DNA of 64,000 nucleotides, from IMG/VR virus record IMGVR_UViG_3300024239_000354. One strand, given 5' to 3'. Position numbers and translations under genes: made by a program. Shown here one piece after another: positions 4,090 to 59,291 of the stretch. How positions within the stretch are numbered: the first letter of the stretch is position 1; each line of letters begins with the position of its first letter. The notes under the pieces were generated by a model. It had not been told where the DNA came from. It ran no database searches and saw nothing but the letters and a program-made list of their open reading frames with translations. Source of the stretch: an uncultured virus (IMG/VR IMGVR_UViG_3300024239_000354) (lineage: Duplodnaviria; Heunggongvirae; Uroviricota; Caudoviricetes).

Positions 4090-4569
4090 TTAGGGTGTGA
4101 TGGTTCTGATGTCGATGAAATCAACACCAAACTGACGGCATCCTGCTTCGACATCTTCCGGTTTATCGTCAATCATAACAGACAATTTTGCGTCATAGCA
4201 AACGCTGCCTTTCCATGTCCGGTATGCCTCAATTCCTGGCATGATTTTCGGAATTTCCAAACCCGCACGTCTGCGAATAAAAAGCTGATCTAGGTCATTA
4301 AGGTAATTTTCATACATTTCATTGGGGATATTGACAACCCCTTTGAACATGTCGCGTTTGATCCCCGTTTTACCATGTACCATTTCGAGGATGTGCCAAA
4401 TCTCGTTCTCCATTCCATGGGAACGGAAAGTTACAATGACGAAATCCGTCGTCTTGAAATTTTTGATGATATAATCAACAAGAATCGAACTTTTTGGCTC
4501 GTCAACCAACGTGCCATCAAAATCAACACCAACCCTTTTATGTCCATCAAGAACACGAATCGAAATCAT
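4090..4569 (-). CDS. HAD-superfamily phosphatase-like protein
   Basis: VGVDFDGTL motif I, VTFR motif II, MIDD motif IV. Confidence 0.7.
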   Translation of the reverse strand: MISIRVLDGHKRVGVDFDGTLVDEPKSSILVDYIIKNFKTTDFVIVTFRSHGMENEIWHILEMVHGKTGIKRDMFKGVVNIPNEMYENYLNDLDQLFIRRRAGLEIPKIMPGIEAYRTWKGSVCYDAKLSVMIDDKPEDVEAGCRQFGVDFIDIRTITP

Positions 4570-5522
4570 AGTGTGACATTCCTGAATTTGTTATTAAGTT
4601 GTCGGCTCCACGAATGACTACGTGGAATTAAAGAACCATTGACAAAAAGCTGGGTTAAACCGTCATAGAAAGGTTTGCTTGCACTTTCCAAACTATGATC
4701 TTCCAGGCTTCTTTGCTCATAATCTTGATGAATGATTGGCAAATCTAACGTAAAGTTTTGCACCACTTCATCCACACTTTCACCAGTATAAAGGAATTCG
4801 TCATAAGGTGCAACCCCGCCGAGAACTTCTACCGACAACTGGATACGTGCGACAATTGGTCGGTCTAATAGATGGGTAATAGGGGTATGACTGGCTCGAC
4901 GCCCCTTAATCGGGATGGATGCGGGAGCAAGCACCGTTTCCCGTACTTTGGAGCGTTTTTTGTTTCGTTTGGTCTTAGAAACGGTGGTCCAGATTGATGG
5001 TGGGATACCATCTTTGTCAACGTCGAAGCCCCATTTGGCCGCCTGACGCGATATCTCATCCGGACCCACGTCTACGGTGGTGTTCACCCCGCGAACCACT
5101 CTACCAACACCGCCACATTCACCAAGGATGCCCGACCCAATAATACGGTGTAGGGTGGGGGATTGTAATGCACGCGCAATCGCGTCTTGTTTACTTCCCA
5201 TACCCCAGACATCAAAGATGAAATCACCCAAGTCACTTGCTGCATCTCTTCCGCCGGTTTGTTCAAATGAATCTTCGGGAGCATCGTGACGCCAGAAGTA
5301 AATTGGCACGAGACCGCTCGTTGGCAATTTACGTTCAACAAAATTATGGGTTAATGCATAGGCATCCCACACCCAGACATCACCGTCTGCGGTTGTCCAC
5401 CCACGCAATGCTGGCTTTGATGCAAGTAGAGTAAGTAGATGTTGACGATTTTTCAATCTACGTGCGTATTCACGTCCAAATCGTATTGTGTCGGCTTCGG
5501 TCAAAATTTCGTGTATTCGCAT
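4566..5522 (-). CDS. leader-bearing multidomain protein (unknown domain A plus further unknown segments)
   Basis: Start reassigned to MRIHEILTE (GGAGG RBS, TAAATA at 5546-5551); LRG..WVWDA..H domain; GVNTTVDV..RQAAKWG segment. Confidence 0.75.
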   Translation of the reverse strand: MRIHEILTEADTIRFGREYARRLKNRQHLLTLLASKPALRGWTTADGDVWVWDAYALTHNFVERKLPTSGLVPIYFWRHDAPEDSFEQTGGRDAASDLGDFIFDVWGMGSKQDAIARALQSPTLHRIIGSGILGECGGVGRVVRGVNTTVDVGPDEISRQAAKWGFDVDKDGIPPSIWTTVSKTKRNKKRSKVRETVLAPASIPIKGRRASHTPITHLLDRPIVARIQLSVEVLGGVAPYDEFLYTGESVDEVVQNFTLDLPIIHQDYEQRSLEDHSLESASKPFYDGLTQLFVNGSLIPRSHSWSRQLNNKFRNVTL

Positions 5523-5584
5523 CAAACACCCTCCACGGTACCCAGTATTTATGGTAAATAGATATAGTTTAGTTGGAGAATGTG

Positions 5585-6103
5585 ATGTACCTACCGGAAA
5601 ATACAAAGCTCATTGATGAATTCAATGATACCGGACATTATATGATCGATGGAAATACCACCAACATCTTTCCGTTCATCGTCTACGGGAGCAAATTTAC
5701 ACGATTGGATTTTGCCCATAGCCGTTTTCATGACCGTCAACATCTGACACTGGAAATTTGGTTTAGTCGTGAACCTAATGGGGATGTGATCTTTGAACTT
5801 CCACCAAATTTCCAGCGATTTCATCCGACCGGCAACCAGACGACGTATATTTTTTATCCGGAAGACCTCGATTGGACAACCCGCGAAACAGAAATGACCG
5901 ATGTGTTGTTTACTGACGAGGTATCGTTTGACTATGACCGTATTGAAACGAATACCGTGAAGGGGCGAACAAAGGATTTCCAGCACGGCTATCGTATCGC
6001 CCGACTGAATCCGGTAGGTACATACTTCATCAATATTCGCAATTTGATGAATTTGGATAATGGGTATTTGTGTCGGATATCCCGCGACGAAATGCCACGC
6101 TAA
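5585..6103 (+). CDS. hypothetical protein
   Basis: GGAG RBS before ATG 5585; TAAATA at 5555-5560. Confidence 0.7.
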   Translation: MYLPENTKLIDEFNDTGHYMIDGNTTNIFPFIVYGSKFTRLDFAHSRFHDRQHLTLEIWFSREPNGDVIFELPPNFQRFHPTGNQTTYIFYPEDLDWTTRETEMTDVLFTDEVSFDYDRIETNTVKGRTKDFQHGYRIARLNPVGTYFINIRNLMNLDNGYLCRISRDEMPR

Positions 6104-6392
6104 ACCCACCTTTCCCCGCATTTATATAATAAATCGGAACTATCGCATCAGATCAGGTAGACCCCATAGGTAGTTTGGTTGATTCGACAAATGCTGGAAC
6201 ACTCGCCGTTCCACCAATATGGAGCGGTTCGACCTGATTTTGACCCAATCCATGGGTCGGCTGCTACCGTTCAAGTATCTGACGGCGAACTGAGCATCTT
6301 TGCTAAATAGAAATAGCGGTAATCATCGGACCTTCACCTCCGATGAAACCCCAGCAGATGTATGGGGCTGTCCCGCTTGACCTATTTAGCAG

Positions 6393-15469: not shown

Positions 15470-16840
15470 TCAATCCTTCAACGCCATTAATTGCCCAAGA
15501 CACCGCTCAACAGATTTTTGCTGTATCCACATAGCTCGTTCTTTTTGCTTGGTTATTTTCCCAGGTGTGGCGAGACGCTGAACAAGGTATTGAACCATCG
15601 CAACAATCACTCGACGGGCATCAAACAGAAGAGGGTGAAGGTATTTAAGCATTTGAACGGTGACTTCTATTTGCTGTAAGAAATCCTCAGCAATACGGTC
15701 ATCTGTAAATTTATTCTCGGTGGTATCTACCACATCTTTGACCGCTTCAATAATCTGGTTATTGATTGCACGAAGGGTGGGGTGATTTTTAAACTTATCC
15801 AGCAGCGCCGGTTTGATACGAACCATTGCAGCAATGTCGTTCAAAATAGCAGAATGTGTCATCACCCAAAAATGATGGTGATTGCTGACCAATGGCTCCG
15901 GTGTCCATTGACTAATAAGTGATTTAAACTTTGCCTCCATCCCGGTGGCACGGTGGCTGTATGCTCGCAACTGTTTGAGTGGTACGTGAATGCGTTCACC
16001 TTTGTAAATCAAGTTCCCAGAATCTTTATCAATGTATTTCTCGACAAATTTGTGAACCAAAGGCAATTCCCACACCACATCGTCGCTGAAAGGTGTCCCA
16101 ACTTTGAACAGTTTCGCCACATCATCATCGGACTTGACCAATGACGGTAACAAATCACGCCCAAATGCATCAAGGTCTGGTTTTGAAACTTTGCGATCCA
16201 GCCAACGGTGGATAAAGTCGTTTGTTAGGGCGTCAAGTGTAGTGATCTGTGTAGTTAGGGTTTCCCGCCACGTTTCCTTGGTCAACGGATAAAAAATCTC
16301 AACGGCAACAACTGGAATTTCTCCCTTTAGAATAATCTCTTGTTCAAGGCTGTAGGGAGGTTTGCGCCACTGTGGATTAACCTTGGTTTCGTCACCATCC
16401 TTGTACGTCTTCACAATGACCTGTTCTGGGGATGGACGCAACGACACCAATGCAGAACCAAAAAGTCCAGCCGAGCCGCGCTCAATGGCGTCTTTCAGTT
16501 CCCACATCATGGACATTTCATCGTATGACTTGACGTATAGTGCAAAAGACATTGCTTCGCTGTAATTATGGCTGGCGGATTCGAGATTTAATGGAAGTGT
16601 TCCCCCATTGGACTTGATTTTCTCAAGTCGTTCAAGCAGATCGCGATTATTAATCTTGAGTCCACGATATACCGTACCAACCGGAACGTTACCGTATTTA
16701 CTCCTAGCTTCCTCGATTTCAGACGCAGACCACCCAAGATATTGCTCGTTCCGTACCCAATTATAAATGTCACGGTCGATGCCAGTATATTTCTCGGCGC
16801 CTTCAAAGTCGTAGGCTTCAAACAGATCACGAATTTTCAT
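15470..16840 (-). CDS. leader-bearing ADP-ribosyltransferase-like protein (R-S-E clade)
   Basis: MKIRDLFE leader; VYRGL, ESAS, EQEIIL motifs; TAAATA on the minus strand at 16878-16883. Confidence 0.7.
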   Translation of the reverse strand: MKIRDLFEAYDFEGAEKYTGIDRDIYNWVRNEQYLGWSASEIEEARSKYGNVPVGTVYRGLKINNRDLLERLEKIKSNGGTLPLNLESASHNYSEAMSFALYVKSYDEMSMMWELKDAIERGSAGLFGSALVSLRPSPEQVIVKTYKDGDETKVNPQWRKPPYSLEQEIILKGEIPVVAVEIFYPLTKETWRETLTTQITTLDALTNDFIHRWLDRKVSKPDLDAFGRDLLPSLVKSDDDVAKLFKVGTPFSDDVVWELPLVHKFVEKYIDKDSGNLIYKGERIHVPLKQLRAYSHRATGMEAKFKSLISQWTPEPLVSNHHHFWVMTHSAILNDIAAMVRIKPALLDKFKNHPTLRAINNQIIEAVKDVVDTTENKFTDDRIAEDFLQQIEVTVQMLKYLHPLLFDARRVIVAMVQYLVQRLATPGKITKQKERAMWIQQKSVERCLGQLMALKD

Positions 16841-18940: not shown

Positions 18941-19126
18941 ATGAGCGCATTCAAATTTGGTGAGACTGACGATCCGTTTGAGGAATTACTTTCCCGCGAG
19001 ATCACATATGCCCATTGGTCGGATCAGGAACGCAAGGGACTTAATTTAGCCCTAAAATGGTATGAGGAATATAAACGGGACAAAGCGATTTACGAGGCTG
19101 AAAACAAAACACCTAAGGAAAGATAG
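18941..19126 (+). CDS. hypothetical protein (start uncertain)
   Basis: ORF track frame. Confidence 0.5.
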   Translation: MSAFKFGETDDPFEELLSREITYAHWSDQERKGLNLALKWYEEYKRDKAIYEAENKTPKER

Positions 19127-19685
19127 GCGTCAAATGATGCATATCGGTCGTCACCTTTATGGCTGGAACCGCTTCAACCTTAGTAATGATTTTTGGGTTG
19201 AAAATCACCACAATGGTTTGGTCGGAGAACCCACCGTAACCATGTGACACTAGATAATCCGCGCCTTGATCAACGATGAATTGGCGCACGTCAGAAGATG
19301 TACCCGGTGTCATGCTTTCAAAATTGATCATTAGGTTCATCAACTGTTCAAGGTTGATGGTGCCTTCATATTTGCGTTTAATGTACGCCACCAAGTCACT
19401 CTTCTTCGCTAGTCGATGACGCTTGATGAATTCAAATGCGGTTTCAAGTGAGATGTTCACCGTGTCAATGCTGGTGCCGCTACGAAAAGTCACCAAGAAA
19501 GTCTTTCCACCACCCTTTGCGTATTTGTACGCGGTGGAATAATAATTTGTTAGGTACAAGCCGGGTCCATATTCCATTTGCTTGCTCTTATTTCCGAGCA
19601 TTTCGCGATAAGAATACTCAAGTTCGCGCCCACCATGCCACATAGTAATCAAGTCGCGTTTCTGCTCTATCTCGACTAATCGCAT
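19113..19685 (-). CDS. leader-bearing ART-like protein
   Basis: MRLVEIE leader; MWHGG, YGPGLYLT, AYKYA, VIFNP motifs. Confidence 0.7.
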   Translation of the reverse strand: MRLVEIEQKRDLITMWHGGRELEYSYREMLGNKSKQMEYGPGLYLTNYYSTAYKYAKGGGKTFLVTFRSGTSIDTVNISLETAFEFIKRHRLAKKSDLVAYIKRKYEGTINLEQLMNLMINFESMTPGTSSDVRQFIVDQGADYLVSHGYGGFSDQTIVVIFNPKIITKVEAVPAIKVTTDMHHLTPIFP

Positions 19686-19686: not shown

Positions 19687-20058
19687 TTATTCATCCGCCA
19701 ATTTATAAAAAATATCAATCGATTTGGATTTGTAACCGATGTTCACAAACACAATATCATCTGTATATGGATTTGGATCACTAGGTTTTTCATCCCCGGA
19801 AACTGCTGGTACCAGAACGTTATAAATCCATCCACCGACCAACTCATGGTTTGGTATCCCCGACTTGGGTTCGACAAAAATATCCAAGTCTTTGGTAGAA
19901 AACCCACGTTGTTTTACCGAACCAACAATGGTTGCCGTCAGATCATACTCTGAAAGTAGCGCGGAAATAGTCTTTAAAAACATATTGGCATCATGGATGT
20001 CCCAATGATGTTTGTTTTCAAGAAGTTGTGCAAAATAGCGCATTTCGTCAGCAGACAT
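19687..20058 (-). CDS. leader-bearing Pol-beta-type nucleotidyltransferase-like protein
   Basis: MSADEMRYFAQLLE leader; IVGSV..KDLDIFV, later IDIF. Confidence 0.7.
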   Translation of the reverse strand: MSADEMRYFAQLLENKHHWDIHDANMFLKTISALLSEYDLTATIVGSVKQRGFSTKDLDIFVEPKSGIPNHELVGGWIYNVLVPAVSGDEKPSDPNPYTDDIVFVNIGYKSKSIDIFYKLADE

Positions 20059-27058: not shown

Positions 27059-27085
27059 AAAACGCCCGGTATTACCGGGCGTTTT
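27059..27085. terminator. bidirectional terminator
   Basis: AAAACGCCCGGTA-t-TACCGGGCGTTTT at convergent gene ends. Confidence 0.75.
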
Positions 27086-36354: not shown

Positions 36355-36471
36355 CGTGGCACAATCTCCCTCTTGACGAACGCATCCACGTTCATCTGAT
36401 CGAGGATGAAGCTCTTGGTCGGACCATCCCCGCGTATCTCCACGAATGTATTTTCGAATATCATTGGTCAT
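36351..36471 (-). pseudogene. internally deleted leader gene relic
   Basis: MTNDIRKYIR fused out of frame to VEIRGDGPTKSFILDQMNVDAFVKREIVPR*, which resembles domain B C-termini. Confidence 0.65.
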
Positions 36472-39746: not shown

Positions 39747-39814
39747 GGAATCCCTCGTGATCCGCCGGTTTTCTGTATTTATTCACTTCAATGGAATTAC
39801 TTTTGTCCGTGCCA

Positions 39815-42511: not shown

Positions 42512-43059
42512 GACGGGATAATTCCCTTGCGGGCAAAATCTTCCATTGCCATGGCATCAAGGGTGATATGTCGCCGCTCGCCAAAATCAATCTCCACGTA
42601 TTCGATGGCGGGCCAACGGCGCATGATTGCTGCAACTGCACGACGACAACCCTCTTTCGAACCTTGTAGATAGATACCGCCTTCGTGCCGAATTTGTCCG
42701 CGTTCATGGTAATCCATCAGGTCGATGATATGACCGCCCCGTACCCAACCTTGCTCAATGGCGTGCTTGGTAACACGGTCGTCATTATCGGCATCTTCCT
42801 CTGTCCATGCATCTTCATCTTCATCCGGATCACCGAAATAATTCGGGCTACCATCAACATAGGGGTTGCTTTTGATACGATCATATTCCAGACCAAGCCG
42901 CTGGTAATCCTGCGCCGCAACCTTGACGTGGTGAGTGTCGATATCATGGGTGATGAACTCGCCGGTCTTTGGGTTGAACCAGAACTTCATTTCGTCCGGA
43001 TCGTGGTGATCCATGGCACTTTCAACAAGCTTCATGTGTTTGCGGATTTGGTCAATCAT
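42508..43059 (-). CDS. leader-bearing protein, domain B
   Basis: MIDQIRKHMKLVE; GAGG RBS; FWFNP..H..GWVRG. Confidence 0.78.
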   Translation of the reverse strand: MIDQIRKHMKLVESAMDHHDPDEMKFWFNPKTGEFITHDIDTHHVKVAAQDYQRLGLEYDRIKSNPYVDGSPNYFGDPDEDEDAWTEEDADNDDRVTKHAIEQGWVRGGHIIDLMDYHERGQIRHEGGIYLQGSKEGCRRAVAAIMRRWPAIEYVEIDFGERRHITLDAMAMEDFARKGIIPS

Positions 43060-43172
43060 TTGATACCTCTCCATTGGTTGTCAATACCTGCCCGATGCGT
43101 GGTACACCGGCTGACCACCAAACTGGTCAAAGCTTTCCACAAGAGTAATGATATGACGGGTGTCCTCTGCCA

Positions 43173-44819
43173 TTATTCGTCCCCTATCCGCAACCGAATA
43201 TTACCAAATAGGCGTTTCATAATCGGATGTTGTTCGGCAAACGCCTTCTGGTATCGAAACACATCGCCGGGATCAGTCTCGTCGTCGTCCGCCCAATCAA
43301 TGTTAACGCGAATGATGAAAGGTCCAGTAGCGTCAATATGAAGGTTAACGCAATCAAAGATACCTTGTCTCTCCCGCTCCCCACGCATCAGCTTGCATGC
43401 ATAATCCTCAGGACGAATGTATTCCGCCGGAAAATCATGGTGGGCAAATGCCCCAGCATCCCACACATACAAATTCGTCGCCAATAATCCACGCAACTCA
43501 TGGAACTTAGCTTCCTTTATCAACTTCGCCAATTCTTGGCGGGACGGATTGATATGGATATGACACGGATCATCGGTACCATATCCATGACTACCAACCC
43601 ATGCTTCAGTTACTACCTTGATATTGAGTAGTCCACGCACCAAGGCATGAAGGTTTTCATCCTCCATCCCGTTCGGGGCTACCCACGTACCATCGTTGTT
43701 GTCAATGCGAATGATTTTGGCGGGGTCAACATCCGGTCCCCAGAAAATTACCTCTTCGTCCTCATCACCGCTGTGATAGGTATGGACACCGTTCGCTTGG
43801 AACAGCAGGGCGGTACTGCCGTAAAAATCATCGGCGCCCCATACCCATGTCTCGAAACTATCGGCAAGAAATGCGAAATTGAAACCACCCACGGAACGTT
43901 CACTCCCAAAAGTCGCATAAAGGTCGTGCGGGTCTGGACTTTCGGTACCAAGAAAACCATTTTCAAGAATGGAATCTGCATTGTCGGTAAAATGGATCAA
44001 CCATGCATTTTCAAGCGGACGGGGACGAACCATGTGCAGCCCCATGTTGTATCGGTTGGAGTTTGGAACCCCTGACCGGGTTGCCATAAATTCAACCCAC
44101 AAACCATCTGGTACTTTGAACAAAACATCACGGGTTAATTTTTGTCGAACAATCTGTTCTTTCTCAGTATCCGGAAGATACCAGAATTTATTAGGATTTT
44201 CATATCCAATGAAGTGTGCAAAACGCATGGCATGCTTTGCATCAGCTTGAATTACCCAATCTTGGAATTGCTTAAGTAACACGGGATTGCGAATAGTCAG
44301 TTGATGATCATGAGGATTGTGCTGATAGAGGCGTGAGAATGCATCACGGTTCTCATGTACCGGCTTCCTAATACCAAAATGCTCGGGGAAATGATCGAGG
44401 ATCGCCTCTGCCCATCCGAAATAGCCTTCTGGTCCGTCGTTGGTGATTTCGACCGGGTTACACGGACGTATTTTTCCTTTGCGCACGCTGTACTTGGTAC
44501 GCGCCCAATCTCCCGGATGTACCCCATTGATGTCTACCGCGCATCCCTGTGGGTTAATACAAAAAGAATGACCCCACTCCTCATTTTCTTCTTCTACAAA
44601 AATCGGCCAACCGGTGCGCTTATGAAGGGCTAGGGCAAATTGCCCACATCCACCTGTAGTGAATTCAGTGCGAACAAAATAGTCAATTCCGCGTCCTGGG
44701 TTCCACGGACCCTGGAAATCGGGATGATCCTCTTGCCATGCCATATCCCGGTGGAGTTCCCATGGCTCTTTTTGAACACTTTCGATAAGATTGATAATGT
44801 GGCGAATGTCGGAAGTCAT
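43173..44819 (-). CDS. leader-bearing three-domain protein (Cys-His-Asp, ART-like, domain A)
   Basis: MTSDIRHIINLIE; GGCGQFALAL..GHS..VDING; LIHFT..GF..FAF..EEVIF; INPS..LRGL..VWDA..H. Confidence 0.78.
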   Translation of the reverse strand: MTSDIRHIINLIESVQKEPWELHRDMAWQEDHPDFQGPWNPGRGIDYFVRTEFTTGGCGQFALALHKRTGWPIFVEEENEEWGHSFCINPQGCAVDINGVHPGDWARTKYSVRKGKIRPCNPVEITNDGPEGYFGWAEAILDHFPEHFGIRKPVHENRDAFSRLYQHNPHDHQLTIRNPVLLKQFQDWVIQADAKHAMRFAHFIGYENPNKFWYLPDTEKEQIVRQKLTRDVLFKVPDGLWVEFMATRSGVPNSNRYNMGLHMVRPRPLENAWLIHFTDNADSILENGFLGTESPDPHDLYATFGSERSVGGFNFAFLADSFETWVWGADDFYGSTALLFQANGVHTYHSGDEDEEVIFWGPDVDPAKIIRIDNNDGTWVAPNGMEDENLHALVRGLLNIKVVTEAWVGSHGYGTDDPCHIHINPSRQELAKLIKEAKFHELRGLLATNLYVWDAGAFAHHDFPAEYIRPEDYACKLMRGERERQGIFDCVNLHIDATGPFIIRVNIDWADDDETDPGDVFRYQKAFAEQHPIMKRLFGNIRLRIGDE

Positions 44820-46165
44820 GGCGTTGCCTTTCGTTTTGACATCAACCATGACACCGCTTTACGCACACAATTCCCATCTTCACTATAATATTCGGCAATA
44901 CTTGAAGACCCACGCCCAGATTCTAATGTTATTCCATCGATAAGGTAAGTGTCGTCAAGATAATTGCACAAATCACTAAAATTGGTGATTGTTGTCATTG
45001 CGAGCGATGCAAACGGAGATATTTCCACATATAACCATAGTGGGTCTCGGTCTATACTTCGTTTGGCACAAGTAATACGTATCCATCCATCTTCCAATGC
45101 CGCAACCGTACCACGCAATGTATGTGATGCATGATCTTGGCGTCCAATCACCGGGATTTGCTCACCCCATGCGGTGATCCAAAATCCATATGGTAATTGC
45201 TCTTTCGGTTTTTTCATGGGGGCATCATCGTACCAATCATCGTCGTCAATACTTTCAATACTTTCCCCCACCCAATTCTTCTCACACCGCCGGGCATATT
45301 TGTTATAACGACGCCCATCCCAATGGTTGTGCATCCCCTTAAATTCCTTGGTGATTCGTTTTAGTTCTGCGAATATTTTATCTTCGTCATCAGTAACAAA
45401 GACATCACCGGTAGCAAATTCATAATGGACTTTGTTGGGGTCTATCCGCCCCCGAATATCATAGTAACGATCACCCACGTTCACACCAACATGTGCCCAA
45501 CTATTCCATGGATCGTCGTCGGCATCATGGAACAACACCAACTTGGCCGCGATGCCACGAGACTTTAAATGCCGGAACAGTGCGAGCGCGAACGTTCCAC
45601 AAAGCCCTGTTGTGGCAATGTCTTCATCATCTTTGGTGTATTTGGAATTTTTGATCAGTTCATCTATAGGATCACGGGTCTCTATATCTTCGTTAACAGC
45701 ACGGGCACGCGCATACGGCGGGTTTTTAGATAGGAGGCGCACTGCTTTGGACGGATTATGCATCAGTTCCTCTGTCCCCTCATGGTCGAGGTACCCTTGC
45801 CTACCGCCGAAATCGGCACTGGTGGTAGTGATTTCATCCAAATTGACGATGTTCTGGTCAACGAGGATGCGCAATGCTCGCCCGGCAATACTGGCACTCT
45901 TCCCGTTGAGAACAAGTTGGGTATAGAAAAGAAGAACTCGCACCCAACCATCATCAATTGCCATATAATTAAGATCACGAATATCATCAAGAGTGAAGGG
46001 GTCAAAATCGTACCCAAATTCTTCGGGGTGATTAAGAATATACTCGTGATGCTCGGTATCTACCCGAATGACTTTTTCGGTTGCCGGATGAATCCATAAC
46101 CCATGACCCAAATCTCGGGGGCGCATTTCAAGCAAATTAATGTAATATCGTAAATCTTCAGTCAT
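44816..46165 (-). CDS. leader-bearing three-domain protein (B, Cys-His-Asp, B)
   Basis: MTEDLRYYINLLE; LWIHP..GWVRV; GLCGTFALAL..AHV..YDIRG; GFWIT..GWIRI; TAAATA at 46189-46194. Confidence 0.78.
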   Translation of the reverse strand: MTEDLRYYINLLEMRPRDLGHGLWIHPATEKVIRVDTEHHEYILNHPEEFGYDFDPFTLDDIRDLNYMAIDDGWVRVLLFYTQLVLNGKSASIAGRALRILVDQNIVNLDEITTTSADFGGRQGYLDHEGTEELMHNPSKAVRLLSKNPPYARARAVNEDIETRDPIDELIKNSKYTKDDEDIATTGLCGTFALALFRHLKSRGIAAKLVLFHDADDDPWNSWAHVGVNVGDRYYDIRGRIDPNKVHYEFATGDVFVTDDEDKIFAELKRITKEFKGMHNHWDGRRYNKYARRCEKNWVGESIESIDDDDWYDDAPMKKPKEQLPYGFWITAWGEQIPVIGRQDHASHTLRGTVAALEDGWIRITCAKRSIDRDPLWLYVEISPFASLAMTTITNFSDLCNYLDDTYLIDGITLESGRGSSSIAEYYSEDGNCVRKAVSWLMSKRKATP

Positions 46166-46204
46166 TATGACCCCGCATTGTGACGAAATATTTAGCCCAG
46201 CGCC

Positions 46205-47885: not shown

Positions 47886-48134
47886 ATGGAAGGCTCCAAG
47901 TATCCCTGGAAATTCACCCACAACATCATGGGCAGTATGTCGGTGTACGCCCTGCGGATTGGCTGGCTCGTGTTCTTCGCCTACGTCGAGGACGGCAAGG
48001 TGGGCATGCTCGAACGGGCGGGTGAAGCTGGTGGTATGGAATTCACCCCTGGCATTGCCCCCGTCGAAACCGACATTCACATCCAGCGCGTGATGGAGAA
48101 GATCACGTCGGCGTGGAGCCAGATGAACGGCTAA
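47886..48134 (+). CDS. hypothetical protein
   Basis: GAGG RBS. Confidence 0.7.
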   Translation: MEGSKYPWKFTHNIMGSMSVYALRIGWLVFFAYVEDGKVGMLERAGEAGGMEFTPGIAPVETDIHIQRVMEKITSAWSQMNG

Positions 48135-49179
48135 GTGACTTGAACACCTGGGAAGGCTTCATTTCGGAAGGAACATAGCCCTCACGGGGAATGAGCAGGT
48201 CATCGTCCACGTCGTGGCTATATTGGGCGCTCCCGTTGTTCCGTGCATTCATGTACACGAGAACGTAAGCCGGGAGTTCTTCGATGCCGAGCTTGAGGGC
48301 AGCATCGACGCGATGATTACCTTCGCCGTTGTAAGCGTGGCGATCCTTCTTCCCTACGACGATCTTGATGGGTGATTTCAGCCCTTCTTCTTTAATCTTC
48401 CCCACCAATTCGTCATCAGTGTTGTACCGAAGGTCGTTGCCTTTCAGCCGCGCCAGCCATTTGGTCGGAACCATTTCCACCAACCCTTCCAGTTCTGGGT
48501 GGTGGCGCCGCCATGCGTTCCGGCGTTCTTCTGCACGCTTATTGTAAGCGTCAATACGATGCTGGATCAGCGACAGCATCTTGGCGTAGCTGTCCGCGAC
48601 GTTCGCAAACTTCTCGCCATTTACGTACCAATCAATGACTTCCCGATTCATCCGCTTCATTTCGGCGTACATCGCCTTGAACTCATCTGCGGTCACGGTG
48701 TCCGGATCAAAGGTGATTTCCATATCACCCTTGACTTGGTTGTACGTGGCACCCTCGGTAACCGGCTTAATCCCGCAGCCACGAAGGTATTGTAGTACCT
48801 CGCGCTGATGGATGTACGTCTTATAGGTATTTTCGTTGTTACCACGCGGGCTGATCACCCACCGCTTGAACTCCCCAAGCGCACGCACGATCTGGCAACC
48901 GATCCGAATGGCAGTCTTGGTCACCCGCCGATCATCGAAGTAAATCTGGAATTCGTCTGGATTGATTTCATTGATTTCGGTAGCGAGCCACCCAGCTTCG
49001 ACCGCTGCATCACTAGCATCAAGCAAACGTACATCTGGAAAATACTGATGGGCAACATCAGTATGTCCCATGATGTCCGGTACGGGGATAATTTCACCCG
49101 TGGCGGTAACCCACCAGCCATAGGCGTTATGATCCACTTGGTCGATTTGGCGGGATTGTTCGATCTCGAAGATTTTCAT
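48103..49179 (-). CDS. leader-bearing protein: domain B, helical segment, ParB/sulfiredoxin-like domain
   Basis: MKIFEIE; YGWWVTATG..H..GWL; PVTE linker; EGLKSPIKI..EGNHRVDAALKLG. Confidence 0.78.
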   Translation of the reverse strand: MKIFEIEQSRQIDQVDHNAYGWWVTATGEIIPVPDIMGHTDVAHQYFPDVRLLDASDAAVEAGWLATEINEINPDEFQIYFDDRRVTKTAIRIGCQIVRALGEFKRWVISPRGNNENTYKTYIHQREVLQYLRGCGIKPVTEGATYNQVKGDMEITFDPDTVTADEFKAMYAEMKRMNREVIDWYVNGEKFANVADSYAKMLSLIQHRIDAYNKRAEERRNAWRRHHPELEGLVEMVPTKWLARLKGNDLRYNTDDELVGKIKEEGLKSPIKIVVGKKDRHAYNGEGNHRVDAALKLGIEELPAYVLVYMNARNNGSAQYSHDVDDDLLIPREGYVPSEMKPSQVFKSLSRSSGSTPT

Positions 49180-49183: not shown

Positions 49184-49200
49184 GTATTTAGGCTAAATAC
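49184..49200. promoter_or_regulatory. divergent pair of late-type TAAATA promoters
   Basis: GTATTTAG-G-CTAAATAC inverted repeat; each hexamer lies 5 nt from an ATG. Confidence 0.7.
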
Positions 49201-49204: not shown

Positions 49205-49978
49205 ATGAAAATACGCGACATCTTGGGCGAAGACGTATGGCACGGATCGCCCCATCGGCATCAGCAATTCAAGCTCGACAACGTTGGTACTGGCGAAGGG
49301 AACATCGCCTATGGTTGGGGACTATACTTCGCGGGTGCCCGTGAAGTCGCGGAATATTATCGCAATGGGCTGTCCCCAGGCGAATGGGTAATCCACGGCA
49401 AGCGCGTGCGCCCGAAGAATAATGCCGAAGGTTGGTTACTGAACCACATGACCACGATGATGCGGGACAAGGGGCATGCGGGGGATGTTGTTGAAGAAGT
49501 AAGCCAGGAAATCGATACCGTGTCCTTCCTAGCCCCAAAGCAAAAACAAGTGGCCAAAACCGCGTTAGCCGCGTGGATCGAAGCTGGCATCGAATGGAAA
49601 TCGCATGGGCATGTCTACCACGCTCAAATCCCGGATGAAGGCTCATACCTTCTGTGGGACGAACCCTACAAGAACCAGCCACGGGCGGTGAAGAGTGCTT
49701 TGCGGAAGTTGACTGACAAATATAAACCCCATATGTCCCAGGTCATCAAAGACAACGATACCGGGGAAGTCATTTACCGTCACATGGGGAATTATAACCG
49801 CAATGTCGCTCGCATATTCGATGAGCAACAGATCAATCGTAAAAGCTCAATGGATTTGGCAAGCGTGGGGATTGCTGGCATCAAGTACCTTGATGGTATG
49901 AGTCGGTATGCCGGGACGGGGACTTACAACTATGTTGTTTTTGATGAGAACGCCGTTCAAATTAAGAACGTAGAGTAA
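49205..49978 (+). CDS. leader-bearing polyvalent-type ART-like protein
   Basis: MKIRDILGE|DVWHGSPH..GEGNIAYGWGLYFA..GIKYLD..NYVVFD; paralog of the C-terminal domain of 24312..25505. Confidence 0.8.
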   Translation: MKIRDILGEDVWHGSPHRHQQFKLDNVGTGEGNIAYGWGLYFAGAREVAEYYRNGLSPGEWVIHGKRVRPKNNAEGWLLNHMTTMMRDKGHAGDVVEEVSQEIDTVSFLAPKQKQVAKTALAAWIEAGIEWKSHGHVYHAQIPDEGSYLLWDEPYKNQPRAVKSALRKLTDKYKPHMSQVIKDNDTGEVIYRHMGNYNRNVARIFDEQQINRKSSMDLASVGIAGIKYLDGMSRYAGTGTYNYVVFDENAVQIKNVE

Positions 49979-51564: not shown

Positions 51565-51577
51565 TTGGAAGTTTCCC

Positions 51578-52645: not shown

Positions 52646-53668
52646 TTACTTTTCTGGGAAAGGTAAACTGCGCAAGAATGAAAAGTCATTCTGATATTCG
52701 GCCAAAGTTGCTTCCGCAACAACACTTGAACTGGAAGAAACACCAAGGTATTGGAGGCAGGCGGGTTCCGCTACGAATTCCATCGGTGCAACTTCGGTCG
52801 CATTCCCCAGAATGTCGTTTGCGTCGTTAGCTCTCCGTTCCTTAGTTTTTGACCAAGTAAGATGATAAGTCCCACCGTCCGGACGACGTGTCGAACCATT
52901 GACTTCTACGATCAATGCTTCAAGTGACCCATCATCAACGTATCCGACTACACACAACGTGGCAGAAGGCGGTACATCTTGTTCAGATACACCAAATTCA
53001 TGGGTCACATGGTGGGCGACCAAATTGTATTTGGGTTGAAACACCTTCATTAACTTACGGCGATTGGCACGGTCAAGAAGGTAACAGCTATAGTATGTAC
53101 CGGTATGTTCCATGATCTTAGAGCTATTAGGGTCAAAGGTCTTAGCATATACACTTTTTACCTGCCATGGGTCAAATGGAACCCAGCTATCAGCGTCTCC
53201 CTCAACCGCGTTCCGATACACCAAGCCGTCATATCCCAACTGTTTAAGGTGACTGAACAGGCGCCGTTTGGCGATACCCGGCGAACCCGTATCGCAAATT
53301 GCAAGATGATCTTCGGTGGTAATACCCCTGGCTTCCAAAACAGCACGGGAGAGGTCAAAACCATCATCCAACCCACGATCATCGACAATTCGAAGTGGGT
53401 TCTGGATCGACAAGAATACCGGCATAATCGCCCCATCATGGGACCACCATACGCCACGCTCCCCAGATTTCAAAGTATTGGTGATGCGCTGGTTTGCAGC
53501 GTCGTGATCACCGAAGTGTGAGCCGGAATAGAACTCATCAAAATCTCGGAACGTCCCGTGATAGACCACAAGCGGTTTACCCTGTGTGTCTACCACCTTG
53601 CTTTGACGAAACCATGCCGCGAAATTGTTTTGTTCGATCAGACTGATCCAGTGGCGAATGTCGGTCAT
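52646..53668 (-). CDS. leader-bearing ART-like plus 2H phosphoesterase protein
   Basis: MTDIRHWISLIE; FAAWF..SKVVD..GKPLVVYHGT..GYDG; HVT and HLT motifs. Confidence 0.78.
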   Translation of the reverse strand: MTDIRHWISLIEQNNFAAWFRQSKVVDTQGKPLVVYHGTFRDFDEFYSGSHFGDHDAANQRITNTLKSGERGVWWSHDGAIMPVFLSIQNPLRIVDDRGLDDGFDLSRAVLEARGITTEDHLAICDTGSPGIAKRRLFSHLKQLGYDGLVYRNAVEGDADSWVPFDPWQVKSVYAKTFDPNSSKIMEHTGTYYSCYLLDRANRRKLMKVFQPKYNLVAHHVTHEFGVSEQDVPPSATLCVVGYVDDGSLEALIVEVNGSTRRPDGGTYHLTWSKTKERRANDANDILGNATEVAPMEFVAEPACLQYLGVSSSSSVVAEATLAEYQNDFSFLRSLPFPEK

Positions 53669-55374
53669 GTTGTTTTTCTCGGGAGAATGCCGCGATCAAC
53701 GAACGCATAGAGGGCTTCAAGGTCCATGCGCCACCAATCACCGTCGTAAATTTCTAACATTGCATCTTTAACTTGTGGGTATAACTTCAACGCATCCTTT
53801 GCTGCTATTCGCAGGCTTTTGGTGTCCATGGCTTCGGCGTGCAAATCCCAGTTCATTTGGACACGGATGCGGACCCAACCGGCTTTGAACATCGCTTTTT
53901 TGCGAGCATCATAGGACTCAGGGTCGATGCGCACACCAGGGTATAAATCCTTCCGACGCGCAAGGTGGTTCACATGTTCACCATCATCGTCCACGAAAAC
54001 ACGGCGTCCAGTGGGGACATGATACCACCATGCGTGATCGTCGCTCAAATGCGGATCGAAGTGGTCATTTGGACCAAGCGCCAACCCTTCAGATAGGTGT
54101 CCCTCTAAAATCCGCTTTATTTCCAGATGAAGTTTATAAAGGCGTTTGATCAAAGATTTACGACGGTTATCATTAAGCCAACGAATAAATCCACGCAAAG
54201 CTTGACGATTTGGACGAAGAATAGTTTTAACCGTTTCTCGGAAATCGGTGCTAACTCCGTAGAGTTCGGCGTAGTCCTTGATCATATCTGGTTCAGCGGT
54301 AGCACGTCGGATGAATGACAGTAACCCACCAACAAGATCATGATAATATGCATTGAATTCTGCGGGGTCATTGTAATACTCAGAACCACTGTCATGGGTT
54401 TCACGGTTTGGACTTCTATTACCACGCGACCGCACTTTATCAAAATAATGCAAGAACTCGTGAGAAAGCACTTCAAGAGCTTCCACCGAACCAACTTTTT
54501 TCTTAACCATGCTTTTGTCAGCATAAGAATCAATTGTGTGATTTGGTGGGAGGCAATTTAGGATTATTCCCATCGAATATCCTTTGTGCGGTGGATCAAA
54601 CACCGCAACCATCCCATGCATACCAATTGCATTTGTATTTACCGTTCCTACCATAACGACAAGATCATCAATACCGAGATCGGCAGTCAGCCCAATCTTG
54701 TCTGGGTAAAATACAAGATATTCCCCAAACTCATCAAACACCCAATGGGCATCAGCAAGTCCATCACGGTTCCACACGTATTGCGTGGTTAATTGAGCAG
54801 CCTTTTTGGCAATCGCATCTACGTTTACATCATCCGCAACAGTTTCAGTAATGGGCGCATTTCCGGTTGCGACCAAAATGTACCGACCATTACTGTAGAT
54901 GCGCGTGGCATCCGGGTCGAATTTATCGTAGGTGAGATCATATGGGATCAATTTAATGCCGGGGTCGCGCCCCAGCGATGCCCAGAGTTTCTTGGCATGG
55001 GTCTGGTGGGATGTATCACTGACCAGTGCAATCCCAAGTTCCTTAATCATGAACAGGTACAGTGCTTTACCAATTCCGGTGTTTCGTAGTTTGCGAGCAA
55101 CAACAACCCGCTTGATTTGCCATGCATTTTCACCGCAATCCGGATACCGGCGCATATCGACAAGTGCAACTGCCTTACCATCCTCCCCGACCAAATACAG
55201 ATCAGCACAACTGGTAATGTCATCGTGGGCGAACCAGATCGCATCATATCCCTGAACCTTGCCCTTCTGAACAGCAGAAATGCCGGGCAGTGCCCGGCGC
55301 TTCTTCATGTCGGTATTAGGATCGATGGTCGTAAAGTTGCGGGCTTTACTATCCCAAATCTCGTTCGTCTTCAT
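53665..55374 (-). CDS. leader-bearing three-domain protein (GNAT, HExxH metallopeptidase, domain B)
   Basis: MKTNEI; VVVARKLRNTGIGKALY; SHEFLH..YYNDPAEFNAY; AWWY..H..GWVRI; TAAATA at 55381-55386. Confidence 0.8.
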   Translation of the reverse strand: MKTNEIWDSKARNFTTIDPNTDMKKRRALPGISAVQKGKVQGYDAIWFAHDDITSCADLYLVGEDGKAVALVDMRRYPDCGENAWQIKRVVVARKLRNTGIGKALYLFMIKELGIALVSDTSHQTHAKKLWASLGRDPGIKLIPYDLTYDKFDPDATRIYSNGRYILVATGNAPITETVADDVNVDAIAKKAAQLTTQYVWNRDGLADAHWVFDEFGEYLVFYPDKIGLTADLGIDDLVVMVGTVNTNAIGMHGMVAVFDPPHKGYSMGIILNCLPPNHTIDSYADKSMVKKKVGSVEALEVLSHEFLHYFDKVRSRGNRSPNRETHDSGSEYYNDPAEFNAYYHDLVGGLLSFIRRATAEPDMIKDYAELYGVSTDFRETVKTILRPNRQALRGFIRWLNDNRRKSLIKRLYKLHLEIKRILEGHLSEGLALGPNDHFDPHLSDDHAWWYHVPTGRRVFVDDDGEHVNHLARRKDLYPGVRIDPESYDARKKAMFKAGWVRIRVQMNWDLHAEAMDTKSLRIAAKDALKLYPQVKDAMLEIYDGDWWRMDLEALYAFVDRGILPRKTT

Positions 55375-55415
55375 AGACCATATTTAGGTCAATAGAAGAT
55401 GTCGTGGTTCCTCCC

Positions 55416-56725: not shown

Positions 56726-57451
56726 ATGAAAATTAACGAAATCATAGTCGAACGACGCCAAGTGCTTGACCCAGAACGTTCGTTGATCGTTTGGGAAAAC
56801 CCATCGTATTCCGAGTTGCGCGATCTAATAAACCAATTCGGAGAATTGCGCGGCGGTGCCGATGCAAATGGTCCACTCGTGGTATGGGATGCCGCGTCCT
56901 GGGTTCATTCGACGGTCGGCCAATATTATCATTATGGCTATCCGTTTGAGTTCTACTACTATTTCTCAAAGACACCAACCGTGCAAGCAGAGGAATGGGC
57001 ATCGTATATGCGCAAGGTGGGTGATGTGTTTGTTGGGGTAAAAAATCCCGATGAAAAAGGACGCAACAAACCAAAGCCTGCCCTTGAGCATCCCCGCGTG
57101 ATTGCTGCGCTACGCCGATCTCGCCCAGTTGTTGAGACAACAACCCATACAGCCATAATTTATCGTGCGATGAATCAAGAAGAAGCGGATCGAACTTTGT
57201 TGTTACAACAACCTTCATTTAAAAAACGTTTTAAATTCTTCAGTACGGATTATAGATTTATAGAAAATCGAGTACGCGATGGGAAATTCGCACATTCGCA
57301 ATATAAAGATGAACCATACCGGCATATTTTACAATTTGAAATATTGTCGGGGTTCGATCAATTTGTCCATTTGAACAGTAAAGAGTTGATGTTGGATGTT
57401 CGTAAGACACCATTAATAAACTTTGGTAATATTTCTAAGATCAACGCTTAA
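56726..57451 (+). CDS. leader-bearing protein: domain A plus possible ART-like domain
   Basis: MKINEIIVE; ENPS..ELRG..VWDA..H; PVVE linker; IYRAM..FFST. Confidence 0.72.
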   Translation: MKINEIIVERRQVLDPERSLIVWENPSYSELRDLINQFGELRGGADANGPLVVWDAASWVHSTVGQYYHYGYPFEFYYYFSKTPTVQAEEWASYMRKVGDVFVGVKNPDEKGRNKPKPALEHPRVIAALRRSRPVVETTTHTAIIYRAMNQEEADRTLLLQQPSFKKRFKFFSTDYRFIENRVRDGKFAHSQYKDEPYRHILQFEILSGFDQFVHLNSKELMLDVRKTPLINFGNISKINA

Positions 57452-58176
57452 GCAGTTATATCGGGATCATTGTTGTCCCAGTTGCCAGAATTATTGACAG
57501 ATTTGATCTGATTAGCCTTGAACACGGCATACACATCCGCCGGAACATTCCGATAAAGATGAGAATCGCTGGTTGGGCTATCGATGATGTCCTTGAAGAT
57601 CACCCCATCATATCCGAGTTTGCGCGCCCGCTTGACTATCTCATCGGTGCTTGCATCTTCATCGGTCACCAATTCCAGTCCAAACCCGTCCAGTTCGTGA
57701 GCATCATCGGGAATTTTGGACTTGGGTTCAAAAACCTGCCGTTCACCTTCATCCCATTCGGTGAAGTCCGAAAGAAGGTCAGCCCATTCTTTTGCCCGCT
57801 TCTGATGATGGATACGGAGGGGATCGGTTATTCGACCGCCTATCCGGGTCTTACCGTCGAGCATTGTCCATCGCTTACCGTCGCCATGGACGATCAGCGG
57901 GTTCTCAATGCGCAAATAGACGCTGTACACCTTGACGCCGTATTCGCCCGCAAGTTCTTTGGACGACGAGAAGAAAGCTGCACCGCGACCACTTGCCGGG
58001 AGTGTGTGGAAAATATCAATCTCACCACCGATATAGGCGTGTGAATTTGATCCATGATATACAACCAATGGGTTGCCATTGGGTGATGTAATCTTGGAAT
58101 TACCAAACCACCGCCAGAAGGCGTCATTCAGATGATTTGTTTGGGCAGCTTCGATCAGATTGATATATTCACGCAT
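57448..58176 (-). CDS. leader-bearing polyvalent-type ART-like protein
   Basis: MREYINLIE; FWRWFGNSKI..PLVVYHGS..FFSS..YL.IENP..GYDGV..QIKSV. Confidence 0.8.
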   Translation of the reverse strand: MREYINLIEAAQTNHLNDAFWRWFGNSKITSPNGNPLVVYHGSNSHAYIGGEIDIFHTLPASGRGAAFFSSSKELAGEYGVKVYSVYLRIENPLIVHGDGKRWTMLDGKTRIGGRITDPLRIHHQKRAKEWADLLSDFTEWDEGERQVFEPKSKIPDDAHELDGFGLELVTDEDASTDEIVKRARKLGYDGVIFKDIIDSPTSDSHLYRNVPADVYAVFKANQIKSVNNSGNWDNNDPDITA

Positions 58177-58180
58177 GCTT

Positions 58181-58801
58181 TTATTTATCGCCTACGGCTT
58201 TTTCCATCTCGATCTTAGTCATGATAAATGCTGCCAAAACTTCATGCGGTTTGAAAGTCAACGTTTTCTTCCGCCCGTTAAAGGCATATACCTCGCGCCC
58301 AAGTTCTTTATTGGCTTGTGCCACATTCTTCTTTGCATTAGGGATAGCGTACATAGGGAAATGCATCTTAACTTCCACGGAGATCGTCCCATCAGGCATT
58401 TCACCCTTGAACATCCAATCTCCATCGTCCCCGTAATCCCGAATATTTTGGATGATGGTAACGGTGAAGGATGGGTTATCAATCTCATCGCCAAACAACA
58501 TCTTCTCATTGATCGGGTACCAATAGTCATACTTAGACCCAATCAAGATGGAAAGCATGGTCATCATGTCGAATCGGTAATAACTGGCAACTGACATGAC
58601 AAACCGATCAAAATCCCGATTGACCCGTTCGTAATCACTCAGAACCATGCGCATCTTGAACGTATTACATGACATTCGGGCTACGGTTTGACCAAAACGA
58701 AGAAAATCATCAAAAATTTCACTCACCAAACCATCGTGGCAGGTATGGAGGGGCATCCGGGCATCGCCGTCACAAATCAACATCGTGCAATGAGTGGTCA
58801 T
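58181..58801 (-). CDS. hypothetical protein
   Basis: GAGG RBS. Confidence 0.7.
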   Translation of the reverse strand: MTTHCTMLICDGDARMPLHTCHDGLVSEIFDDFLRFGQTVARMSCNTFKMRMVLSDYERVNRDFDRFVMSVASYYRFDMMTMLSILIGSKYDYWYPINEKMLFGDEIDNPSFTVTIIQNIRDYGDDGDWMFKGEMPDGTISVEVKMHFPMYAIPNAKKNVAQANKELGREVYAFNGRKKTLTFKPHEVLAAFIMTKIEMEKAVGDK

Positions 58802-58817
58802 AATTTCCTCTTATGAC

Positions 58818-59291
58818 TTAGGGATTATATTCTTCCCGTTTCACAATAGTGAGCTTAGTCGGGTTGAATACAATGATGGAAGGGCGACGTTCTTCGCCCT
58901 CGTGCATGTTCTTATAGATCACACCCTCATACCCCAGCGTCAACAACTGTTGACGAATGGCGCTATCACTCATGGACCCATACCAGCGAAGATGCGAGAG
59001 CTTGGGATGGCGGCGCAGTTGCTCGACAAAGCTATCGCCGTACCATCCGCCTTCATCTTGCAGACGAATGAGATTGCTCACATCTGCGCGGACATGGAGG
59101 ATGAAGCCGGGTTCGTCACCCAACCGCCATTCCGCTTGTTCACGCGACCCAAGGTGGATTCCGAGTTGCCCTGCGGTATAAGCCAGACTAAAACGCGAGA
59201 ACTTGGCGGTGGTGCCGTGGTACCACGTTGACGACCGAACCGTTTCACATAGGAACGTGAAGTCGCTAACAATATTGATGAAATCGCGCAT
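58818..59291 (-). CDS. leader-bearing ART-like protein
   Basis: MRDFINIVSD..LCE; WYHGT, GIHLG, GYEGVIY.N..E, IVFNP; TAAATA at 59318-59323. Confidence 0.75.
   Translation of the reverse strand: MRDFINIVSDFTFLCETVRSSTWYHGTTAKFSRFSLAYTAGQLGIHLGSREQAEWRLGDEPGFILHVRADVSNLIRLQDEGGWYGDSFVEQLRRHPKLSHLRWYGSMSDSAIRQQLLTLGYEGVIYKNMHEGEERRPSIIVFNPTKLTIVKREEYNP

Follow-up and report, generated by a model that had tools for sequence, protein, structure and literature searches.

A 64,000-nucleotide stretch of DNA from the uncultured virus IMGVR_UViG_3300024239_000354 (Caudoviricetes), referred to here as the window, encodes at least 31 proteins that open with one of two short N-terminal leaders, a long form and a short form, each of which runs to a glutamate. 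These tags exist, they are N-terminal, they are kept as peptide rather than as DNA, and they end sharply at the Glu. As to their function, the best reading is in our judgement that they direct otherwise dissimilar cargo proteins to the capsid and are then cleaved off after the Glu, by analogy with the internal proteins of phage T4. We adopt this reading tentatively and place it a little below an even chance.

All 22 long-class coordinates put forward in a preliminary description of this DNA proved to be start codons of minus-strand open reading frames (ORFs), 21 of them ATG and one, at 24319, GTG. The long leader has the 13-residue consensus M-[TS]-x-[DE]-[IML]-R-x-phi-phi-x-L-[ILV]-E, where phi stands for a hydrophobic residue; 18 of the 22 carry the full motif and four (29421, 38122, 59291 and 36471) are degenerate. 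Starts 36471 and 36354 belong to the same ORF, with the decayed leader of the former lying 39 codons upstream of the intact leader of the latter. A copy additional to those described before, at 43173, opens a frame of 30 aa, which breaks off within an apparent ADP-ribosyltransferase (ART) start. The decayed leaders at 36440-36471 and 43081-43173 bear signs of turnover through duplication and recombination.

When the 18 full leaders were aligned on the Glu, Arg was present at -7 and Leu at -2 in every one of them. As a motif, L-[ILVA]-E closes all 18, and the residue that follows is S, N, G, A or T in 16. Column information ranges from 1.15 to 3.7 bits from position -12 through the Glu and amounts to 1.5 bits at +1, a position of small or polar residues. 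Beyond +1 no column exceeds about 1 bit, as noise among 18 rows would give, and the earlier remark that similarity stops near the Glu is borne out. A strict regular expression for the long leader gave 12 six-frame matches in the window, all of them directly after Met and on the minus strand, and none in 50 shuffles. A looser core expression gave 17 matches, 16 of which are N-terminal (shuffle mean 0.38). With a hidden Markov model (HMM) of the leader, 23 N-terminal sites scored at or above 8.7 bits, 21 of these being rows on which the model had been trained, and the top background site reached 5.7 bits. A long-type expression matched 21 of 516 window starts and none among the 923 of T4 or the 1608 of Aeromonas phage CC2. 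In all matches the leader begins at Met1, and its size is 9-13 residues.

The short leader has the 9-residue consensus M-[KR]-phi-x-[ED]-phi-phi-x-E and is a low-information motif. Each of its ten coordinates is an ATG start that opens an ORF of 154 to 569 aa, and four of the ten leaders end in [IL]-x-E. The short expression matched 11 six-frame sites against a shuffle mean of 0.94, and when required to open an ORF of at least 100 aa it returned 10 matches against 0.02 in shuffles. It was found at 10 of 420 window starts, 1 of 802 in T4 and 1 of 1273 in CC2, an enrichment given as 30-fold. As a class, the short leaders of the preliminary description are upheld by their starts and by this enrichment; one member is doubtful, the DnaJ-like protein at 39746, whose match may be only the N-terminus of its own family.

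What follows the leaders is diverse. A BLASTP comparison of 31 proteins, taken from residue 19 to the end, returned only 12 related pairs, with two groups of ARTs (35515, 53668, 58176, 42511 and 59291; 25505, 49205 and 21641) and one kinase-like pair (37514 and 38122). At least 14 leader-bearing bodies have no detectable mutual similarity. A recognisable domain is present in only 16 to 17 of the 31, and 14 are without relative, domain or assignable family. The cargo tally comes to about nine ART-PolyVal-like, three YunG-like and two kinase-like proteins. Three of the ARTs exceed the gathering cut-off of 31.2 bits for ART-PolyVal (PF18760), namely 58176 (73.7), 35515 (70.0) and 53668 (55.9); six weaker ones, five at 20-26 bits and one at 13, are tied in by BLASTP or PHROG 21376. 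In the ARTs, PHROG and Pfam matches start only after the leader. A YunG domain was identified in 27629 and, weakly, in 46165, and an ESM Atlas model gives 44819 an N-terminal YunG-like fold. Pfam places a GNAT domain in 55374 and a J domain in 39746, and an NCBIfam scan of the cargo proteins added nothing.

The ART, kinase and YunG bodies all have ORFs of their own, of 123-569 aa, and no multi-effector fusion polypeptide is present. The ART bodies of 25505, with a long leader, and 49205, with a short one, are homologous, with 32% identity over 240 aa. The sequences support a leader that is portable across bodies without mutual similarity. Portability had been proposed before, and it is corroborated by the unlike bodies, by the occurrence of either class on homologous ARTs and by the different cargo of sister strains described below. 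Two other statements of the preliminary description need qualification. The bodies were called unrelated, which is true of at least 14 of them, whereas the ART, YunG-like and kinase-like families recur; and they were called an enzyme arsenal, which overstates a set in which 14 of 31 bodies have no assignable function. A 160-aa minus-strand ORF (49962-50444) has an ART-like LFHGT start and no leader, and is possibly an untagged paralog.

Across eight leaders that are close to one another, T, D, I, R, L and E, all of them invariant, are each written with two to three codons. The longest exact DNA match between leader pairs is usually 15 nt or less, and the DNA upstream of the leaders shows no relatedness beyond a promoter-like hexamer. 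Judged with a loose regular expression, 19 of 23 leader starts have a Shine-Dalgarno-like, purine-rich stretch ahead of them. Since the amino acids are invariant and their codons vary synonymously, selection acts on the peptide and not on the DNA.

The region was found in four DNA metagenome runs, all from one study, with no RNA run listed among them, and contigs of these runs were aligned to window positions 34400-46300. In runs X2 and X4, a contig stays in agreement with the window to the end of the DnaJ-like gene and for 19 nt into the 38733 leader, after which it diverges, continuing into 253 and 159 letters of unlike sequence, respectively. The first 30 divergent letters, translated by hand in the frame of the leader, read R-F-I-R-L-I-E-S-V-N. 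This corresponds to residues 7-16 of P0016, an 85-aa leader protein with two leader copies that comes from a separate contig of 21,479 bp and has no gene in the window. In run X3, another contig departs from the window at codon 9 of the 36354 leader, and a contig joins the 42511 ART body to other upstream sequence one codon before the leader Glu. A further joint, 36354|38715, connects two leaders. Among the breakpoints listed, four of 11 distinct ones fall inside leader-coding stretches, which occupy 4.3% of the region; a binomial estimate, made post hoc, puts the chance of this at less than one in a thousand. None of 40 listed single-letter differences, beyond which there are 75 more, lies inside a leader, where about 1.7 would be expected. 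The leaders mark boundaries of cargo exchange between strains. The decayed leaders (36471 and 43173) and the double leader of P0016 are consistent with recombination at these sites.

The clustering of breakpoints, the decayed duplicates and the two copies in P0016 could also be accommodated if the shared 5' segment were kept at the DNA level, as a site for cassette-shuffling recombination or as a translation-initiation element, with the peptide itself functionless. We regard this as highly improbable, as the amino acids are invariant with differing codons, exact DNA matches are mostly short and upstream DNA is unconserved save for the hexamer. Recombination at leaders is better seen as a consequence than as a cause.

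The leader has the character of an amphipathic helix, with a helical hydrophobic moment of 0.65 compared to 0.41 ± 0.15 for windows of the bodies. In five leaders checked, the longest hydrophobic run is two residues, so that the leader is not a Sec signal. AlphaFold2 modelled the leader as a helix, at low confidence, in both of two runs; the models themselves, of the 38733 protein from its single sequence (mean pLDDT 36.6) and of the 58176 ART from a 9-row alignment (mean pLDDT 47.2), were too poor to interpret.

Such a helix might serve, uncleaved, to dock each protein to a shared partner that is not the head core, for which an adaptor or chaperone, a compartment built by the phage, or a common target in the host could be considered. 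Short amphipathic helices are generic protein-binding elements, the encapsulation peptides of bacterial microcompartments and the cargo-loading peptides of encapsulins being, as general background, comparable short helices, and a J-domain protein heads one of the leader operons. A docking helix, however, needs neither the invariant L-x-E with its following small residue nor the abrupt loss of conservation, which fit a cleavage site, and no candidate partner was identified; we consider this explanation unlikely. Equally concerned with the peptide is the notion of a degradation or timing tag, through which a protease of host or phage would keep toxic enzymes short-lived in the cell that makes them. 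Bacteria have N-terminal degrons, and many of the cargos (ARTs, kinases) are potentially toxic modifiers. The sharp Glu boundary and the T4-like ending would nevertheless be left unexplained, and nothing in the window ties the leader to Clp or Lon, which makes a degron quite improbable.

TAAATA is the most enriched intergenic hexamer in the window, 24 of its 36 copies being intergenic, and CTAAATA occurs 13 times against 4.3 expected. Twenty TAAATA copies, correctly oriented, are followed by a gene start at a distance of 5-37 nt, with clusters at 5-6 and 22-32 nt. The form [C/A]TAAATA[C/T] spans the window from 5545 to 63443 (for example at 16844-16850, 21629-21635, 25529-25535 and 28185-28191, and further at 46189-46195, 49185-49199, 55381-55387 and 59318-59324), and [C/A]TAAATA stands at the head of every transcription unit that holds leader genes. 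No conserved -35 box was found upstream of the TAAATA motifs of the window. In the T4 record, the late genes 18, 20, 22, 24 and e have TATAAATA 26-28 nt before their ATG, and alt has it at about 25 nt. The match of motif and spacing to the late promoters of T4 suggests that transcription in the window may be of the T4 late type. Sites located 5-6 nt from the ATG would yield leaderless or near-leaderless mRNAs. An IS605-family TnpB (OrfB) gene at 6393-7595 has CTAAATA flanks at 6303 and 6383, and among the cargo operons lie genes for a Dps/ferritin-like protein (55824-56567), a LOG-family protein (TIGR00730; 16883-17404), a cation-efflux protein (17460-18557) and a FliL-like protein (13431-14189).

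The J-domain family represented by the DnaJ-like gene (window 38730-39746; L017 1483-2496) is spread through T4-like phages, with 202 records. Its homologue in CC2 has CTAAATAC upstream, starts with a T4-propeptide-like peptide, and follows the homologues of gp3, gp1 and 57A, at the place taken by ipI in T4. No family of N-termini resembling that of this CC2 homologue was found in CC2.

The window has gene content of phage type, including a topoisomerase II, an HNH-helicase, TnpB, a T7-type kinase PHROG and several families known from PHROG only. The topoisomerase gene (7765-10536) encodes an A subunit of GyrA/ParC type that lacks a C-terminal domain and is split, at about residues 135-535, by a LAGLIDADG homing-endonuclease intein. 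This gene and that of the HNH-helicase, replication genes in the window, are without leader, in keeping with the preliminary description. Only about a third of the window genes have a Pfam match, no tRNA and no Rfam family was detected in the window, and a megablast search with 12 kb from each of two window regions gave no match in 50,697 phage records. In the protein collection, window proteins were placed on contigs as long as 869,618 bp, and near-identical copies on contigs of 21-54 kb. Several genes are cell-like: M32 and M16 peptidases, a CDF transporter and RNase H. The M32 gene (2137-3741) encodes a full-length, Taq-type carboxypeptidase with best bacterial matches of 52-53% identity (Sorangium and Gemmatimonadales metagenome-assembled genomes). 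The M16 gene (60765-62027) encodes a peptidase of the pitrilysin/MPP type in which the HxxEH motif is kept as HFIEH (residue 45), and which has homologues of 30% identity in Bacillus phage G (gp2) and Microcystis phage MaAM05.

We take the source to be a huge phage, with some reserve. The length of the longest contig and the cell-like genes would also suit a non-phage genome, or a tag made for another injector, such as the contractile injection or secretion apparatus of a large extrachromosomal element or of a bacterium; payloads of the Photorhabdus virulence cassette use N-terminal loading regions. This is very unlikely in view of the PHROG matches to a T7-type kinase, a phage helicase, topoisomerase II and phage-only families, the short topoisomerase A subunit, the HNH-helicase, and the promoter motif with its T4-late-like spacing. 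Furthermore, a Pfam match is found in only about a third of the genes, and even the best bacterial M32 relatives are just 52-53% identical.

The M16 peptidase itself could be imagined to remove the leader as a presequence, in place of a prohead protease. Its gene lies 1.5 kb from the last leader gene with the HFIEH motif intact, giant phages G and MaAM05 have homologues, and the leader contains an invariant Arg; the mitochondrial processing peptidase, an M16 enzyme, recognises Arg-containing amphipathic presequences. The link is nonetheless one of proximity only, the conserved boundary is at the Glu, seven residues after the Arg, and single-gene M16B enzymes usually act on free peptides, all of which leaves this removal route a slim prospect.

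Among 1.84 billion representative proteins, the leader profile found four matches, all of this lineage and one of them P0016. A word-index profile search otherwise returned only polyvalent proteins of 1380-1915 aa, which matched through the ART start and not the leader, and when the first 40 residues of the 38733 protein were run through the word index, two candidates came up, none of which scored. A back-translated leader DNA pattern, which matches four window leaders, had no occurrence in the viral, metagenome and genome contig collections. Searches for related loci, with the 487-aa topoisomerase neighbour in viral contigs and with the 21295 protein in metagenome contigs, found none, and neither did tblastn with the topoisomerase neighbour against phages. 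Within these collections, the long leader is private to this lineage. One IMG/VR locus (25% GC), a related-locus candidate from P0016, carries no leaders and was judged a false positive.

The leader genes and associated promoter-like motifs are listed in Table 1. Two regions of the window, 50400-52650 and 22550-23700, have no convincing gene call. The first of them is rich in GC, at a fraction of 0.557 for the 48-52 kb bin, and contains long overlapping ORFs on both strands (50467-51591 on the plus and 50518-51621 on the minus strand).

Table 1. Positions in the window of leader-bearing genes and of selected TAAATA-type motifs.
Feature	Position	Strand	Evidence and remarks
Long leader; 123 aa, no assigned family	19687..20058	-	HMM 21.6 bits
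Long leader; 406 aa, no assigned family	20075..21295	-	regex, HMM; near-identical P0010 on other contigs
Long leader; 75 aa	21337..21564	-	HMM; TAAATA 28 nt upstream
Long leader, GTG start; 203 aa	23708..24319	-	regex, HMM
Long leader; 397 aa, additional N-terminal domain, then ART-like C-terminal half	24312..25505	-	Pfam, PHROG, BLASTP
Long leader; 185 aa, YunG domain	27072..27629	-	28.7 bits, cut-off 27
Long leader; 149 aa, no assigned family	28411..28860	-	HMM
Degenerate long leader; 101 aa	29116..29421	-	HMM 19.4 bits
Long leader; 333 aa, ART-PolyVal	34514..35515	-	Pfam 70 bits, PHROG
ORF with decayed leader 36471 and intact leader 36354; 280-aa body, no assigned family	35512..36471	-	P0015 match in two stretches
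Long leader; 152 aa, no assigned family	36468..36926	-	regex, HMM
Long leader; 185 aa, kinase-like, paralog of 38122	36957..37514	-	BLASTP
Degenerate long leader; 203 aa, T7 gp0.7-like protein kinase family	37511..38122	-	phrog_15752, E 1.3e-13
Long leader; 204 aa, no assigned family; other cargo from leader codon 7 on in sister strains	38119..38733	-	HMM 31.4 bits
Long leader; 224 aa, ART-like; strain breakpoint one codon ahead of leader Glu	41837..42511	-	Pfam, PHROG, BLASTP
Long leader; 183 aa, no assigned family	42508..43059	-	HMM
30-aa remnant, leader and truncated ART start	43081..43173	-	HMM 17.7 bits, not a training row
Long leader; 548 aa, YunG-like fold in N-terminal part	43173..44819	-	ESM Atlas model
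Long leader; 449 aa, weak YunG-like match; first in operon	44816..46165	-	Pfam; TAAATA 23 nt upstream
Long leader; 340 aa, ART-PolyVal and phrog_36523 domain	52646..53668	-	Pfam 55.9 bits, PHROG
Shortened long leader (9 aa); 242 aa, ART-PolyVal	57448..58176	-	Pfam 73.7 bits, HMM
Degenerate shortened leader; 157 aa, ART-like	58818..59291	-	Pfam, BLASTP
Short leader ending I-L-T-E; 318 aa, no assigned family	4566..5522	-	regex
Short leader; 456 aa, no assigned family	15470..16840	-	regex
Short leader; 190 aa, weakly ART-like	19113..19685	-	regex
Short leader; 303 aa, ART-like	21641..22552	+	Pfam; TAAATA 5 nt before ATG
Short leader ending I-L-T-E; 154 aa, no assigned family	27698..28162	-	regex
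DnaJ-domain protein, 338 aa; doubtful short-class member; heads 39746-34514 operon	38730..39746	-	Pfam, PHROG
Short leader; 358 aa, no assigned family	48103..49179	-	regex; TAAATA 5 nt before ATG
Short leader; 257 aa, ART-like; body homologous to long-leader gene 25505	49205..49978	+	BLASTP
Short class; 569 aa, GNAT acetyltransferase domain	53665..55374	-	Pfam
Short leader ending I-I-V-E; 241 aa, C-terminus matches phrog_22386	56726..57451	+	PHROG, regex
Back-to-back CTAAATA pair, each 5 nt before a diverging short-leader gene	49185..49199		motif scan
CTAAATA promoter-like motif heading 46165-41837 leader operon	46189..46195	-	motif scan
ATAAATA promoter-like motif heading 39746-34514 operon	39776..39781	-	motif scan

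If the leaders are capsid-targeting tags, the cargo genes would be expressed late from the TAAATA promoters, and the amphipathic leader would dock each cargo to the core or scaffold of the assembling head. Cleavage after the terminal Glu, by a prohead protease of T4 type, would follow, and the mature cargo would accompany the DNA and be injected into the next host. Late transcription, head docking, cleavage, packaging and injection are all steps that we infer, by analogy with T4. The ART-PolyVal cargo lends this mechanism indirect support, as polyvalent proteins in which the domain occurs are predicted to be packaged and injected.

Several observations weigh against capsid targeting. The 64-kb window contains no capsid, portal, scaffold or prohead-protease gene, so that both the phage identity and a Glu-specific protease are themselves presumed. 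The largest phage genome described as of 2020 has 735 kb (PMC7162821), and the contig of 869,618 bp exceeds this, which leaves room for a non-phage element. TAAATA also stands ahead of genes without leader (Dps-like, LOG-like and others) and does not single out the leader genes, and the late timing of its transcription units is assumed from T4. The strain breakpoints derive from contigs, with all four runs belonging to one study and one joint (36354|38715) having only 26 letters on one side. The long form, with its 13 residues and invariant Arg, is without sequence counterpart in T4 or CC2, and the existence of two different tags calls for a second explanation. For the short class, the best scores in T4 are only 6-7 bits over 1158 ATG starts, gp24 ranking first with the HMM and IPI with an ungapped matrix; a T4-propeptide expression matched 4 of 516 window starts and 6 of 1608 in CC2, only about a two-fold enrichment in the window. 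Finally, the DnaJ-like homologue of Klebsiella phage Roth22 lies beside a gp46-like gene, has no tag-like start and is outside the context seen in CC2. The packaging tag of the preliminary description is supported in part, by its sequence-level traits; by score, the short class bears only a weak likeness to the tag of T4.

Should the leaders be packaging tags, the N-termini alone would list the head-carried, injected proteins of an uncultured giant phage. Such a list would include many proteins of unassigned function as candidates for host takeover or anti-defence. The T4 principle of a small conserved address and fast-changing cargo would scale to dozens of enzymes, with evolution using the address as a cassette boundary, and a tag of 9-13 residues with a built-in release site would be of practical use in filling capsids with foreign proteins. 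Should the capsid reading be wrong, a leader that is private to the lineage and under strong selection at the peptide level, on at least 21 bodies, would still require some recognition partner common to all of them.

The closest parallel is T4 itself. In the T4 record, IPII and IPIII begin with MKTYQEFIAE followed by A, gp24 with MAKINELLRE followed by S, gp22 with MLKEQLIAE followed by A, and Alt with MELITELFDE followed by D. The consensus of prohead-protease sites, [LI]-x-E followed by cleavage, was checked against these N-termini. Judged by sequence, the T4 propeptides appear to have in common with the window leaders a Leu or Ile at P3, Glu at P1 and a small residue thereafter. The capsid-targeting sequence of T4 is likewise a short N-terminal peptide common to otherwise unrelated proteins. 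Peptides of 10-20 residues target T4 proteins to the scaffolding core (PMC5694885, PMC9958956, PMC3012670), and gp21 cuts them off C-terminal to the Glu (PMC5694885). T4 also resembles the window in having ADP-ribosyltransferase cargo, a TAAATA-type promoter about 25 nt from the ATG and strain-polymorphic cargo (PMC3012670), the internal proteins of T-even phages being a highly diverse set that shares only the conserved targeting sequence (PMC3012670). It differs in having a handful of tagged genes, compared to at least 31 in 64 kb here, and in its ART, which is of the Alt family, whereas the ARTs of the window belong to the ART-PolyVal family.

A second example is provided by ejection and inner-body proteins of the giant phages SPN3US and phiKZ, from which, as proposed here, a prohead protease related to that of T4 cuts off N-terminal propeptides after Glu (PMC5694885). 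The paralogs gp53 and gp54 share an identical 15-residue N-terminus, and cleavage affects only 8 of the roughly 50 head proteins of SPN3US (PMC5694885). In these phages, however, the motif is A/S/G-x-E and most propeptides exceed 100 residues (PMC5694885), while the full long leaders of the window have Leu at P3 in 18 of 18 and leader size is 9-13 residues.

The cargo itself recalls the polyvalent proteins of phages and conjugative elements, which have ART-PolyVal in common with it and, going by Pfam names, phage domains of the YunG type (PMC5512222), and which are predicted to be packaged in the head and injected as effectors with the DNA (PMC5512222). Polyvalent proteins fuse 2-15 domains in one polypeptide and are often encoded beside portal or MuF genes (PMC5512222). 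In the window, in contrast, each domain has a gene and a leader to itself, and neither a portal nor a MuF gene is present. In other elements, ART-PolyVal was found in polyvalent proteins of 1262-1915 aa with up to eight copies per protein, and in phage Tunturi_5 such a protein adjoins the portal gene. Three of these proteins from other elements (P0001, P0009 and P0013), of 1380-1915 aa, have two to eight tandem ART-PolyVal domains. A giant phage may have unbundled the polyvalent protein into dozens of separate effectors, each with a private 13-residue tag for packaging and cleavage, the DNA of which would double as the junction for swapping cargo between strains. We consider this idea possible, at rather less than an even chance; if it is true, the head would work as a delivery vehicle that is programmable and evolves fast, with far more types of cargo than in any phage studied.

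In the literature on huge phages that we searched, which did not extend to subscription journals and paper supplements, no description of such a leader set was found. What is known is the principle established for T4. New are the number of tagged genes, at least 31 in 64 kb, the 13-residue tag with its invariant Arg, the unbundled cargo of polyvalent type, and the exchange of cargo between strains at the tag.

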